In this document: in pieces, positions 17,783-21,380 of the stretch
How the letters are laid out: every line of letters begins with the position of its first letter
Position numbering within the stretch: position 1 is the stretch's first letter
Assembly: GCA_020720805.1 (NCBI GenBank)
Contig: DYNZ01000007.1
Location: forward strand, 2,568-66,567
DNA length: 64,000 nt
Source of the DNA: Leptospira biflexa
GTDB taxonomy: Bacteria > Spirochaetota > DYNZ01
Direction of reading: 5' to 3'
The notes under the pieces: model-generated
Told to the model about the DNA's origin: nothing
The model's input: only the letters and a program-made list of their open reading frames with translations
The model's database searches: none
Program-made: the position numbers and the translations under genes

Positions 17783-19324
17783 ATGATAATTTTGAAGTAT
17801 ATATGGAAAGCAGCTACTATCTTTGTAGCTGCTTTTTTTATTGCGATCCACTCGGCCGGTACTGCGCCGCAGATTATTAGAGATAATCGAATTCAATATT
17901 TGAACGGGTATCCTGCGCTGGGACGCGGGTATAATCTGCACAGCAACTCTTTGCACTCTGTCTGTTTCCAGGAAATCGCTAAAAATGATCCCACTTTTGA
18001 CTTCAAATATGACATGACCGAAATTAACGATGAATATCTTAGTCATATTCGAGCCAACGATAAAAATAATATTGAAGCCAATTATTTAAGAGAATTTGTT
18101 GAAAAATATTTTCAGGAGACAGATGTTACTGGTTGGGGAGATCCTGTTGAGTTAAAAAATTACCTGGTGCGGCTACAGGTGTCCAATTATTATTTTTCAA
18201 TGAATGAAACCAGATCGCCAATCAGTGTCAATGCTAAGCGACTGATCAGAGAACAGAACTATGTAAATTTTTTTAATAGCTGTGGATTTTACTATATTCG
18301 CTCCATGGGCAGCTTTTCCTCCTATCTGGCGATTTTACAGTTTCGCAGTGATCCCGACAACGAGAAAAAAAATGAAGATTTTGTTCGGGATTTGGAGAAA
18401 GGGCTTTTTCGTTTTTCTCATTCCAAAAAAGAACAGGATGCCTTTATTAATGAAGCTACTCGGCGTGGTCTAAAAATTTATGTAAATGGCATTGGTCTGT
18501 CCAAGGGGAGTCAGGCAGCAAATATCGTGCCTACGGATCTAGAGGAGTTCCGGGCGGTGGTTAAGAATGCGTTTACAATGATGCAAAATCCGAGCGCAGG
18601 TTATATAACACAAATGGAAATTGTGCCATGGTTTGAAAATCCAGAATTTCATGTCGCCTTAACCAAATCGCTGACCGAGCTGGATGACCAGCGCAAGCAG
18701 AAAAAGGAATCAAAGAATAGTTCCATCAATTCTACGGCAGAGCCAAATAAGCAGAAGGAGTCGAGTGCCAGCCACTATTTGCGGCAGCGCAGGCTTGAAG
18801 CAAATGCGGGTGTTATCACTGAAATTAATAGAGTAAGTAATTTGCAGATGGAAAAGTATCATCTTGCTATGATTTGTAAAAGAATGATCTATGATAAATT
18901 TATTAATGTCTGGTATATTCACAATACCCGGAATCAACCGATGTATGATGCCAAATTCACCCGTTTTTATAACCGGGAAAATCCTAATAATGAAGAAGCA
19001 AGAATTTCATTGTCCGATTTTGTAAATACCTTTCAAAAATATCCACCTGAAATATTCTTAAAACATAACAAGAGTTTTTTGTATGGAAATGAGTCTATGA
19101 TGAAGGTGAAGATTCCAGAAACAACTGGGGCTTTGCGTTGTATTCATGAAATATTTGCTCAAGGTATTGATTCTGTTGATAGTCAGAGAATTCCTCAATG
19201 CGTGCAAACCATGAAATATATTAGCGAGATTCATACCTCCCTTTTTATAAAAGAATCACAATTCATCCGACAATATTGCCTTCCGCAGCCAGCCGAGCTT
19301 CATTACAATGAAGATGGTAAATAG
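17783..19324 (+). CDS. Secreted MACPF-like protein, divergent paralog 5
   Basis: APQIIRDNR, PALGRGYNLHSNSLHSVC, NFFNSCGFYYIRSMG, VNGIGL, MEIVPWFEN, YCLP; more AT-rich coding than paralogs 1-4. Confidence 0.55.
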   Translation: MIILKYIWKAATIFVAAFFIAIHSAGTAPQIIRDNRIQYLNGYPALGRGYNLHSNSLHSVCFQEIAKNDPTFDFKYDMTEINDEYLSHIRANDKNNIEANYLREFVEKYFQETDVTGWGDPVELKNYLVRLQVSNYYFSMNETRSPISVNAKRLIREQNYVNFFNSCGFYYIRSMGSFSSYLAILQFRSDPDNEKKNEDFVRDLEKGLFRFSHSKKEQDAFINEATRRGLKIYVNGIGLSKGSQAANIVPTDLEEFRAVVKNAFTMMQNPSAGYITQMEIVPWFENPEFHVALTKSLTELDDQRKQKKESKNSSINSTAEPNKQKESSASHYLRQRRLEANAGVITEINRVSNLQMEKYHLAMICKRMIYDKFINVWYIHNTRNQPMYDAKFTRFYNRENPNNEEARISLSDFVNTFQKYPPEIFLKHNKSFLYGNESMMKVKIPETTGALRCIHEIFAQGIDSVDSQRIPQCVQTMKYISEIHTSLFIKESQFIRQYCLPQPAELHYNEDGK

Positions 19325-21380
19325 TAAAGTTATTGTTATATTTTATTTGCTGATTTTGTGGTTGGTCAGTTCGGGGTGCAGCGCAAAATATGTTTGGAAA
19401 CCTGTAAACCAGAAAAACTCTCATTTGCCGCTGATGCTAGATCATTCTGAAATTTTAGGCAGGGGCTTGCAATTAACGAGTGCAGGTTTTGTTCCAAAAT
19501 ATTGCATGAAATCGGCTCAGATTAAAGTACAGGGAGGCAACCTTGAAATTGAAATTATTCGTATTGATGATAAAATCGATCTTCGGTTTCTTTCCAACTC
19601 CATAAGAACTTTTACAGAAGAGAGCTGGCGTCAGGCTATTCTCTCTAATAAAGAAAGTAAAAAGATATTTAGCTTTCTACTGCGGATAAAATTAAAAAAT
19701 CGGACTGCATATTTGGATTATCTTGGATCCAAGTTGAGGGATGATATTCAAAAAATTCTTTCGAGCGGGCATGATCTCTTGTTTTATGATAATTGCGGAA
19801 CTCATTTTATTGACAGTGTGGTTTTTGACTCTTCGGTATCACTTTTTCTGGCTCTTTATTATGACTCCAAGGATCAAGGAATTTTAAATGAGATGTTGCA
19901 AAAGATAAAGGGGGAAAAGCCAGCGAATAGTTACCAGATTGAAATTCTTCATTCTTTGCCTAATTATTTAAATAGCTTTCTTTCAATGCGTATGCATTTA
20001 GCCGAACCATACCTGCCAAAGGACTTTTATTTTCCGGAAATAAAAGTATCTAATATAGATGTATTTTTGAAAAATATTATCCAAAATCTCTATAAGTCGG
20101 AGCATGGAGCTATTGTTTCTTTCGAAAAAAAATCTTGGTCAGAATTTAGTGGTATATCTTCGAAATTAAATAATAAAAAAACTCCTATGTTTCGGTGGCA
20201 TAGCGAAACGATTTTTAACGAAATTTATTTTTTGCGTGATGAAATTTTTCAACAGCATCTTAAGATGGCTGAAATTTTTTTATATCAAAAGAAAATAATA
20301 AAAAAGTTAAAAAAAAATCCAGAAATACAGCCAAGCTTTATCGGTTTTTTGATTCGATATAAGCCTGAAAAAACATGGAATCATTTTTACAAGTGTCGTG
20401 ATGCGCTATGGAGGCGGGGGGAAGCAGATATTCAATCGATATCGTATTGTAAAACATTGCTGTCACAATTGGAAAAAAATAAAATATGGATATCCGAATA
20501 TGGTCGTACGCAGCAGCCAAATATCTCGGCTACGTCACCAGGATATTTATCTTCGCAACAATTGTACCCGTTTTTATTGCAATTCTTACCGGAAGTAAAA
20601 AAAAATCCGAGAAGTAAATCGCTGGATTCACAAGATACACTGTTTCAAAATCAGATTCAATATAGACAAAATCCTCCATTAGGTATTGGTTTCGATATGC
20701 AAGGCAGGGTATATAAATCATTTTTCTTTAAGAAAGATGATGATGGCCAGCCAGAAACAGATCAGATTGTTCATGGAACTTCGTATCAAAAAAAGCCAAT
20801 GAATATGTGGTTCGACTATAATTTTCAAGAGGCAAAAAAATCCTCCTGGATCTATAAAATTTTCCTTTTCTGGAAGTCCTTTCCAGGTGAACACCATTAC
20901 CAGGGGGCTTGGAATCTTGAATATAGGACGGAGCAGTGGTTTCCTGAGCAAAAATTAAAATCTGAAGAAATTGCCATGATAAAAAAAAATCCAGTAAAAT
21001 TTTTTCAAAATTTTGGGACCCATTTCCTTCAGGAAAAAATGGGAAAGTCCGGTCTAATAATCCATTTTGCCAAACCGGCGATAGCCGCAAGCGCATTTTC
21101 GGAAAAAGAGCGTCGGAATAGATTAAAGCTTTTAAAATTTCAGCTATATGGCTTACCTTCCCATTTTCTAAAATCAATACATCAGCCGGATTCAGTTGAA
21201 GAGTTGTTGGATAACTTTGACCCTCGGTTTATTCAAAAAGCATTTGCAAATTCTTCGCCGGTGGCAACTAAATTAGCCTTAACACCATGGATACGTTATT
21301 TTCTTGCTTCAGGACAGTTTTCGGAGTCTGAGCTAGATCCATTCGTCTATTTTATGCATAGGTTTCATTTTGAAAAATAG
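19308..21380 (+). CDS. Putative lipoprotein with two MACPF-signature-like modules
   Basis: Lipobox VSSG-C. Module 1: ILGRGL...KYC...FYDNCGTHFIDSV. Module 2: LGIGFD...FFQNFGTHFLQEK. Overlaps the end of paralog 5. Confidence 0.5.
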   Translation: MKMVNSKVIVIFYLLILWLVSSGCSAKYVWKPVNQKNSHLPLMLDHSEILGRGLQLTSAGFVPKYCMKSAQIKVQGGNLEIEIIRIDDKIDLRFLSNSIRTFTEESWRQAILSNKESKKIFSFLLRIKLKNRTAYLDYLGSKLRDDIQKILSSGHDLLFYDNCGTHFIDSVVFDSSVSLFLALYYDSKDQGILNEMLQKIKGEKPANSYQIEILHSLPNYLNSFLSMRMHLAEPYLPKDFYFPEIKVSNIDVFLKNIIQNLYKSEHGAIVSFEKKSWSEFSGISSKLNNKKTPMFRWHSETIFNEIYFLRDEIFQQHLKMAEIFLYQKKIIKKLKKNPEIQPSFIGFLIRYKPEKTWNHFYKCRDALWRRGEADIQSISYCKTLLSQLEKNKIWISEYGRTQQPNISATSPGYLSSQQLYPFLLQFLPEVKKNPRSKSLDSQDTLFQNQIQYRQNPPLGIGFDMQGRVYKSFFFKKDDDGQPETDQIVHGTSYQKKPMNMWFDYNFQEAKKSSWIYKIFLFWKSFPGEHHYQGAWNLEYRTEQWFPEQKLKSEEIAMIKKNPVKFFQNFGTHFLQEKMGKSGLIIHFAKPAIAASAFSEKERRNRLKLLKFQLYGLPSHFLKSIHQPDSVEELLDNFDPRFIQKAFANSSPVATKLALTPWIRYFLASGQFSESELDPFVYFMHRFHFEK

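Follow-up and report, generated by a model that had tools for sequence, protein, structure and literature searches.

A tandem-core lipoprotein and its secreted relatives suggest a multi-part bacterial pore machine akin to the complement membrane attack complex

Pore formers of the MACPF/CDC type play central roles in immunity and among bacterial toxins. In a 64,000-nucleotide stretch of Leptospira biflexa DNA derived from a biofilm metagenome, hereafter the window, we found an open reading frame (ORF) encoding a predicted lipoprotein, termed Lip, with two homologous but diverged MACPF/CDC-fold cores in tandem, an architecture supported by family profiles and a structural model. Lip is encoded beside secreted relatives that carry a single core each, five of them in the window (paralogs 1–5) and six in the sets of other genomes. 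The gene set suggests an undescribed bacterial multi-part pore machine that resembles the complement membrane attack complex (MAC). The features of the window are collected in Table 1.

The N-terminus of Lip reads MKMVNSKVIVIFYLLILWLVSSG-C24-SAK and has the charged N-region (K2 and K7), the 13-residue hydrophobic core (residues 8–20) and the lipobox of a bacterial lipoprotein processed by signal peptidase II (SpII). The stretch L14-LILWLVSSG-C24, with Cys24 encoded at nucleotides 19377–19379, satisfies a lipobox rule of the PROSITE PS51257 type ([LVI..][AST..][GAS]-C, with the cysteine at 15–35). A cysteine ends the hydrophobic region in most members of the Lip family, including 11 of the 11 orthologs read from related loci; 10 of these pass the rule, and the remaining one has a relaxed box and keeps the cysteine. 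Rule and family conservation together confirm the lipobox VSSG-C that a preliminary description of this DNA had placed here. The public gene call (P0001, 648 residues) begins at Met43, leaving out both signal peptide and lipobox (window 19308–19436). Lip residues 1–42 align with the signal peptide, the cysteine and the W/LP..F motifs of the orthologs; therefore the long start is, on sequence grounds, the real one, the 690-residue form is the true protein, and the 17-nt overlap with paralog 5, on which the preliminary description had also remarked, stands. Promoter and terminator scans gave signal at background level only.

Each core of Lip carries a G.G motif followed by a GTHF motif: ILGRGLQ (residues 49–55) and CGTHF (163–167; nucleotides 19794–19808) in module 1, and PLGIGFD (457–463) and FGTHF (569–573; nucleotides 21012–21026) in module 2. 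Among all window ORFs of at least 120 residues, GTH[FY] occurs at Lip residues 164 and 570 and nowhere else, with about 0.003 occurrences per protein expected from composition. The paralogs have CG(S/T/A/V/F)YY at this place, and the two GTHF motifs of Lip are therefore the closest matches to the textbook signature. That signature is Y/W-G-T-H-F/Y-X6-G-G. Lip lacks it in full form, since C or F, and not Y/W, precedes GTHF and a GG at +10/+11 is absent after both copies (IDSVVFDS; LQEKMGKS). The consensus of the Lip family around the signature is CGTHYVSQxxHRRGF, and the best-conserved element of the family is the GTH motif of module 2, in which G570 and H572 are near-invariant.

The AlphaFold model of Lip, computed from a 29-sequence alignment, reached a predicted local distance difference test (pLDDT) score of 81 and a predicted template modeling (pTM) score of 0.83; that of paralog 3, from a 96-sequence alignment, reached 83 and 0.74. 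In Foldseek searches of the PDB, all 50 listed matches of the Lip model, and likewise of the paralog 3 model, are MACPF/CDC structures, with E-values down to 6e-5 and 6e-6, respectively, and probabilities up to 1.00. They include Plu-MACPF, C9, C8, C6, perforin, MPEG-1, pleurotolysin B, Mpf2Ba1, GNIP1Aa, TgPLP1, astrotactin-2, pneumolysin, perfringolysin, EaCDCL, stonustoxin and BT_3439. The MACPF/CDC fold has a bent central four-stranded sheet between two helical clusters, in the order b1-CH1-b2...b3-CH2-b4. Both models fit it in their order of secondary structure, namely b1, helices, b2, helix-turn-helix, b3, helices and b4. The end of b2 is an invariant YY in the paralogs and AY in Lip module 1, and the start of b3 is CG(S/T) in the paralogs and CGTH in Lip. 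These are the positions held by the CDC/CDCL motif F/Y-F/Y-Xn-YGR, which is described as sitting at the bends of strands 2 and 3 with a downstream GG pair (PMC7527733, PMC11169675). Lip and the paralogs lack both YGR and GG, and at the positions of the motif have AY...CGT (Lip module 1) or YY...CG(S/T) (paralogs).

Profile comparison connects the two cores. With family profiles in hhalign, Lip residues 43–288 align with paralog residues 41–306 at 98.1% probability (E 9e-14), and module 2 (440–690) aligns with module 1 (40–300) at 97.2% (E 4.5e-11) and with the paralog family at 92.6% (E 4.5e-7). The alignments extend from the G.G motif past GTH to a terminal S..G....PW motif, and the tandem duplication is therefore real. 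A direct BLAST comparison of module 1 with module 2 within Lip gave E 0.19, in register with GTHF and not significant, so the duplication is established at the profile level only. Module 2 was assigned its fold through its homology to module 1 and its own secondary-structure order; against the PDB, its profile gave as sole sequence matches the signature of astrotactin-2 (E 0.46, not significant). AlphaFold had been suggested in the preliminary description as a way of looking for two MACPF-like lobes, and the outcome bears it out: the model matches MACPF/CDC structures alone, and the second module is homologous to the first. The tandem MACPF proposed there accordingly survives as two homologous MACPF/CDC-fold cores, and not as a protein that satisfies the Pfam MACPF model or the full signature. 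The central helical domain between the modules contains cysteines C363 and C381 in the window and four cysteines in most orthologs. Homology of this domain to the C-terminal Cys-helical domain of the paralogs could not be demonstrated (hhalign probability about 2%), and the idea of Lip as a whole paralog plus an extra core is unproven.

Sequence databases do not name the family. Searches of Pfam (E of 1 or below), NCBIfam, PADLOC and PDB sequences were empty for Lip, and Pfam, NCBIfam, PADLOC and PDB sequence searches were empty for the five paralogs; PDB sequence searches with the Lip-family and paralog-family profiles gave nothing significant. A word-indexed homolog search with Lip returned only Lip itself. 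An exhaustive phmmer search gave 29 distant relatives at about 25% identity, most of them spanning residues 10–590, and nearly all retain the cysteine at the signal end, both G.G motifs and both CGT(H) motifs. The paralog family is much larger (at least 199 matches). No member of it has a Pfam domain, and the few that are named are each called "hypothetical protein" and come from Spirochaetota or unclassified metagenome-assembled genomes (MAGs). The gathering score of Pfam MACPF (PF01823), 21.5 bits, is not reached by Lip or its relatives: weak matches occur in 5 of the 29 (best E 0.0097), Lip orthologs score at most 12.8 bits, always on the signature region of module 2, and none of 96 paralog-family members matches. 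Thiol_cytolysin (PF01289) had no match in the Pfam scans of Lip, its orthologs and its relatives, nor among the families listed for the paralog family. Judged on the model, Lip belongs to the MACPF/CDC superfamily by fold only, and neither to Pfam MACPF nor to the CDC/CDCL family.

Some members of the Lip family are longer. C-terminal MORN repeats of about 150 residues are present in 4 of the 29 representatives (P0124, P0128, P0130 and P0133) and in 7 of the 14 orthologs read from loci (L006–L011 and L015), with Pfam E-values down to 8e-49. The MORN-bearing locus orthologs are those of 814–859 residues plus a split gene in locus L012; the window Lip and the orthologs of 673–775 residues lack the repeats. 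We regard the MORN domain as a candidate membrane- or partner-binding module. The split gene of L012 was considered as a natural two-gene version of Lip and rejected, as the break (11243–11263) falls in the linker that joins the central domain to module 2 and results from a frameshift at an A12 homopolymer. The frameshift may be an assembly error or, possibly, phase variation.

The genomic context of Lip is conserved. We gathered loci in two independent ways, through the paralogs (L001–L003, L014 and L015) and through Lip (L004–L013, with the closer subset of the 29-sequence alignment), and classified their ORFs with hidden Markov models. The loci come from MAGs labeled Spirochaetota, Leptospirales or Spirochaetia, and in one case "Deltaproteobacteria". 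Whichever way a locus was found, Lip is accompanied by paralogs in all 14 that have any flank, so the case that the preliminary description had held against its own proposal, homologs mostly without the secreted paralogs, was not encountered. A neighbor-joining tree resolves the paralogs into six orthologous groups (A–F), mostly with one member per genome. The order A-B-Lip holds in 10 of the 10 loci with an upstream flank, where B and Lip are spaced −23 to +125 nt apart. Downstream of Lip come four further paralogs where contigs reach far enough, sometimes after a gene for a leucine-rich repeat (LRR) protein, and a small sCache-like gene is usually the last of the set. Several distinct MACPF-type subunits that fall into separate groups are thus encoded together, as expected of a MAC-like hetero-oligomeric system: six groups plus Lip, across 14 loci with flanks. 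The fixed order and the six orthologous groups point to a defined multi-subunit set and not a redundant family.

In the window the order is C, E, F (paralogs 1–3), a collagen-like gene, A, B and Lip, with C, E and F upstream of Lip rather than downstream as in related loci. That Lip closes the cluster, as first described, is correct for the window; in other genomes it lies mid-cluster. A group D paralog, present in all complete related clusters, was not found in the window by tblastn, nor were the LRR and sCache genes.

The segments at the positions of the transmembrane hairpins (TMH1 and TMH2), which we read off the secondary structure of the AlphaFold models, differ between Lip and its relatives. 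In Lip they are charged or short, as the preliminary description had it (Table 1). Module 1 has a TMH1-position segment of 28–33 residues across orthologs, 30 in most, and a TMH2-position segment of 36–37 residues in every ortholog, whose second half alternates between hydrophobic and polar residues (QIEILHSL in the window, QISIF or QINIF in orthologs). The TMHs of perfringolysin are roughly 25–30 residues long. With about CDC length and some alternation, the module 1 segments could, on the model, form short or partially inserting hairpins. At 17 and 4–16 residues, the segments of module 2 cannot contribute membrane hairpins; with these missing and those of module 1 short, Lip cannot build a full transmembrane barrel alone. 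The label "probably non-inserting" given to Lip at the outset is thus borne out for module 2 only; module 1, which keeps segments of CDC length (30–36 residues) with some beta-amphipathic character, may insert in part. The only clue in the sequences, the pair of GTHF motifs, belongs to the member of the set that least resembles a pore former.

Each of the secreted relatives has helical segments of full size at both hairpin positions, and several of these are amphipathic. TMH1 and TMH2 segments measure 37–41 and 39–64 residues in groups A, B and F, 39–53 and 49–69 residues in group E, and 46–74 and 51–76 residues in groups C and D, where they are long and S/T-rich. Alternating hydrophobic/polar stretches are frequent, for example FEFELELAIKGFG in the TMH2-position segment of paralog 3 and FEADMQVAVSGFG. 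The paralogs thereby have the pair of amphipathic segments of hairpin-capable length (37–76 residues, alternating) that is expected of a pore former. In the MAC, C6 and C7 have short hairpins that reach the outer leaflet only, and C8 and C9 have bilayer-spanning ones (PMC6294249); the graded lengths across Lip and the paralogs recall this gradient.

We tentatively favor a reading in which Lip is a lipid-anchored initiator on which the secreted subunits assemble a hetero-oligomeric barrel, and rate it a real possibility that falls somewhat short of probable. It fits best because Lip is a lipid-anchored tandem core with reduced hairpins, is strictly coupled to B, is accompanied by five more subunit types with progressively longer amphipathic segments and bears MORN repeats in 7 of 14 orthologs. 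Of nucleation and blocking, the two roles that the preliminary description offered for Lip, the first is thus somewhat favored. Lip would sit on a membrane through its lipid anchor, perhaps helped by the MORN domain in many orthologs and by the aromatic FLFWK loop in all of them. Its two-core edge would offer a ready-made start for assembly, and the translationally coupled B subunit, paralog 5 in the window, would be the first to bind. The remaining paralogs would then join, and their longer hairpins would unfurl into a hetero-oligomeric beta-barrel pore. We infer physical interaction, assembly order, pore formation and the membrane targeted alike; for sequential assembly, the basis is the lipid anchor, the gradient in hairpin length and the coupling of the B and Lip genes.

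Several points weigh against assembly on Lip as initiator. A Lip with its anchor in the producer would start pores in that cell's own membrane unless it were surface-exposed and released, and we saw no evident export route across the outer membrane for the secreted paralogs. Loss of hairpins suits a cap or immunity role equally well. The template modeling scores (TM-scores) of the Lip and paralog 3 models to known structures are low, at 0.13–0.32; the fold call therefore depends on the probability given by Foldseek and on the fact that all listed matches are MACPF/CDC structures, and the assignment is to the same superfamily, at a distance, and not to a close structural homolog. The window copy is, moreover, the most divergent of its family (25–29% identity to orthologs). 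In it, the HRRGF.YYF motif and two of the four central cysteines have been lost, the MORN domain is absent and module 2 has a 12-residue insertion. The copy also lies in a low-GC block (17783–29273, 11.5 kb; GC 0.34–0.39, GC at third codon positions 0.30–0.39) that holds paralog 5, Lip, a VWA membrane protein, a 1573-residue cyclase-AAA-TPR protein and a 290-residue protein. GC is 0.35 for Lip and 0.38 for paralog 5, compared with 0.44–0.46 for paralogs 1–4 and 0.43–0.49 for these and the rest of the window. The B–Lip pair may here have a different origin or be under a different constraint; divergence and low GC could reflect replacement by a foreign copy or a relaxed or shifted constraint, and the window Lip may have drifted in function.

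Lip could instead protect its producer, acting as a decoy on the cell surface that binds the growing edge of paralogs and halts polymerization or insertion in the manner of CD59 or BcdI, which we consider unlikely. The CD59 fold is unrelated to that of MACPF/CDC. A protective role would account for an anchor in the producer's own membrane and for a module 2 without hairpin segments beside a module 1 with short ones, but the strongly conserved GTH motif of module 2, at the bend of the sheet, speaks against it, as do the conserved MORN domain and aromatic loop, both of which look as though they serve an active component in binding. Lip is the fastest-evolving member of the set: in the same genome pairs its identity is 25–33% where that of the paralogs is 42–68%, and in closer pairs 55–60% where theirs is 64–89%. 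Such a rate is expected in toxin/immunity co-evolution, although invariable mid-operon coupling to one subunit, B, is more typical of a structural partner. A lipoprotein immunity factor beside toxin genes is documented for the CDCLs (PMC11169675), yet that factor, BcdI, is a 30-kDa lipoprotein that the available text of the same paper does not describe as CDCL-related, and the portions of the literature at hand gave us no immunity factor built from the fold of its toxin.

A function in the producer's envelope appears more improbable. Sec-exported paralogs would meet a periplasm-facing Lip and assemble a large hetero-oligomeric ring or beta-barrel in the outer membrane of the producer. It might act as a channel for export, in vesicle release or regulated lysis, or as a non-lytic structural scaffold, as with perforin-like proteins that have taken on non-lytic roles. 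All components have only Sec-type signals, no outer-membrane export system is linked to the set, and the accessory genes encode collagen-like, small sCache-like and LRR proteins. The sole PDB sequence match, not significant, is the membrane-tethered, non-lytic astrotactin-2. The set is chromosomal and mostly single-copy, its groups are conserved across several Spirochaetota MAGs, and no mobile-element genes were seen in the locus flanks, a distribution closer to housekeeping genes than to a mobile toxin; however, the family was found in a limited set of lineages only, which does not suggest an essential envelope function. The long S/T-rich segments of groups C and D (46–76 residues) and the alternating stretches in several groups are typical of lytic hairpins, and we know of no precedent for a MACPF/CDC barrel that forms a bacterial producer's own channel.

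That the B–Lip pair of the window is a decaying or drifting copy, possibly horizontally replaced and under relaxed functional constraint, and no longer working with paralogs 1–4, would agree with its composition amid unrelated genes, its divergence and lost motifs, the missing group D and the rearranged gene order, but is very unlikely given an intact 690-codon ORF that keeps the lipobox, both G.G and both GTHF motifs, a confident AlphaFold model, and the preserved A-B-Lip order and B–Lip overlap.

Assembly seeded by Lip can be compared with known systems. The Bacteroidota CDCLs (CDCL-L, CDCL-S and BcdI) share with the Lip set MACPF/CDC-fold proteins from adjacent genes, SpII lipoprotein signals and a lipoprotein, encoded in the operon, that modulates assembly, to which the place of Lip in its cluster may be likened (Abrahamsen 2024, PMC11169675; Johnstone 2025, PMC11952106). 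A single CDCL-L, the larger subunit, is reported to recruit about 30 CDCL-S (PMC11169675; PMC11952106), acting as a membrane platform with an extra C-terminal binding domain (PMC11169675), which is paralleled by the MORN domain of 7 of 14 Lip orthologs. EaCDCL-short (9ccq) gave the highest target-normalized TM-score for the Lip model, 0.32. Unlike the CDCLs, which have two or three subunits, the Lip set has six to seven distinct ones, of which one is a lipoprotein and the others have signal peptidase I-type signals; its candidate platform is a two-core tandem with one core hairpin-less; (A/Y)Y...CGT(H) replaces F/Y-F/Y-Xn-YGR and GG; and its hosts are Spirochaetota, not Bacteroidota.

Like the Lip set, the MAC (C5b, C6, C7, C8 alpha/beta/gamma and C9) is built from anciently diverged MACPF paralogs with distinct roles. 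Its hairpins are graded in length and charge, its partially inserting initiators form the platform, and C5b-8 seeds C9 (PMC6294249). Structures of C8, C9 and C6 are among the best fold matches of the Lip and paralog 3 models. The Lip set differs in being bacterial, in having no TSP, LDL or EGF accessory domains, and in a candidate initiator that is lipid-anchored instead of C5b-bound and has two cores fused in one chain; the GTH motif is the only detectable sequence similarity. The alpha and beta cores of stonustoxin (4wvm), the top fold match of the paralog 3 model, are said to be held together before assembly, reportedly shown by Ellisdon in 2015. In C8 alpha-beta, two MACPF-type cores are described as paired before assembly to act as a seed (PMC3021121). 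Both are made of separate chains with complete hairpin regions each, whereas the cores of Lip are covalently fused and one is hairpin-less. Bacteroides BT_3439 (3kk7) and astrotactin-2 (5j67–5j69), MACPF proteins of reduced or non-lytic function and both among the fold matches, share the MACPF fold with Lip, and one of them is membrane-tethered; unlike Lip, they are single-core and lie outside any multi-paralog operon. BT_3439 has short hairpin regions.

To our knowledge, animal complement was the sole example of a multi-component, sequentially assembled MACPF/CDC system before the two-component CDCLs of Bacteroidota were described in 2024. Our literature searches gave no paper linking MACPF to Spirochaetota and none on a tandem bacterial MACPF. 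The conserved set, with six secreted subunit types and a tandem-core lipoprotein, is unannotated, its named members all being "hypothetical protein". It might be the counterpart of the MAC in environmental Spirochaetota, a hetero-oligomeric pore of seven to eight cores assembled in fixed order from six secreted subunits, with Lip as the seed in the role of C5b-C6-C7-C8, although in this specific form we regard the idea as rather doubtful. If this is true, we know of no bacterial pore-forming system of the MACPF/CDC type that is more complex, and it would be the first with a covalently tandem core. Assembly as proposed would extend a complement-like principle to another phylum, provide a natural fused-dimer seed for studying the nucleation and direction of MACPF/CDC rings, and add two new sequence families to the superfamily.

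Table 1. Positions of Lip, its parts and the neighboring cluster genes in the window (aa, amino acids)
Feature	Position	Strand	Basis or remark
Paralog 1, group C; longest S/T-rich hairpin-position segments (53 + 63 aa)	8734..10308	+	Tree, segment reading
Paralog 2, group E	10295..11773	+	Tree, segment reading
Paralog 3, group F; the modeled one	11815..13227	+	AlphaFold and Foldseek
Collagen-like secreted protein, possible accessory component	14214..16067	+	Pfam Collagen, 5.7e-32
Paralog 4, group A; always upstream of B	16195..17733	+	Synteny, tree
Paralog 5, group B; divergent secreted MACPF/CDC-like protein, always immediately upstream of Lip	17783..19324	+	hmmsearch, synteny, neighbor-joining tree
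Lip, tandem-core lipoprotein ORF, 690 aa	19308..21380	+	Stop-free translation
17-nt overlap of Lip start and paralog 5 (group B) end	19308..19324	+	Paralog 5 stop at 19324
SpII-type signal peptide, lipobox V20-S-S-G-C24	19308..19379	+	Read from sequence; PS51257-like rule; Cys conserved in orthologs
Module 1, MACPF/CDC-like core, residues ~45–290; LGRG 50–53, CGTHF 163–167	19440..20177	+	hhalign, model secondary structure
Module 1 TMH1-position segment, residues 87–118, 32 aa, one helix	19566..19661	+	38% charged
Module 1 TMH2-position segment, residues 186–221, 36 aa, two helices	19863..19970	+	25% charged
Central all-helical domain, residues ~295–425	20190..20582	+	Model; conserved cysteines
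Module 2, hairpin-less MACPF/CDC-like core, residues ~455–665; LGIG 458–461, FGTHF 569–573	20670..21302	+	hhalign
Module 2 TMH1-position segment, residues 511–527, 17 aa, conserved W..K..FLFWK..P loop	20838..20888	+	Exactly 17 aa in all orthologs
Module 2 TMH2-position segment, residues 591–606	21078..21125	+	16 aa here via insertion; 4 aa in nearly all orthologs

The mature N-terminus (A)GPTIIRDNR..D...TPVLGRGYS..TNT.QS.C is nearly identical across paralog groups A and C–F, and suggests, from the sequence, that these groups have a partner in common or a common signal for export or activation. The collagen-like protein (617 residues) has GXY repeats broken by five modules of about 27 residues ("PAHQW.G.ALRFA.PDGSWGE.VDLRG"), after which come a coiled coil and a C-terminal domain that is conserved. 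In L005, L006 and L012 homologs occupy the same place, immediately upstream of group A, and the protein may play an accessory or targeting part in the system. An LRR gene lies directly 3' of Lip in four loci (L001 4533–6275, L003 473–3241, L004 5242–6222 and L005 11299–13431), and a sCache_2-like protein of 158–185 residues is encoded in the cluster of eight loci and in L014.

The 1573-residue protein of the low-GC block (window 23683–28404) joins a class III nucleotide cyclase domain to an AAA_16 ATPase and a long array of TPRs; its cyclase part has generic PADLOC matches to Pycsar cyclase models, and the gene is not conserved beside the cluster in other genomes. Further upstream, the window contains a tRNA-Ser(gct) gene at 3386–3474 and, at 3764–4948, a CsgG-like N-terminal domain fused to an outer-membrane beta-barrel, a weak homolog of which lies upstream of the cluster in L008.

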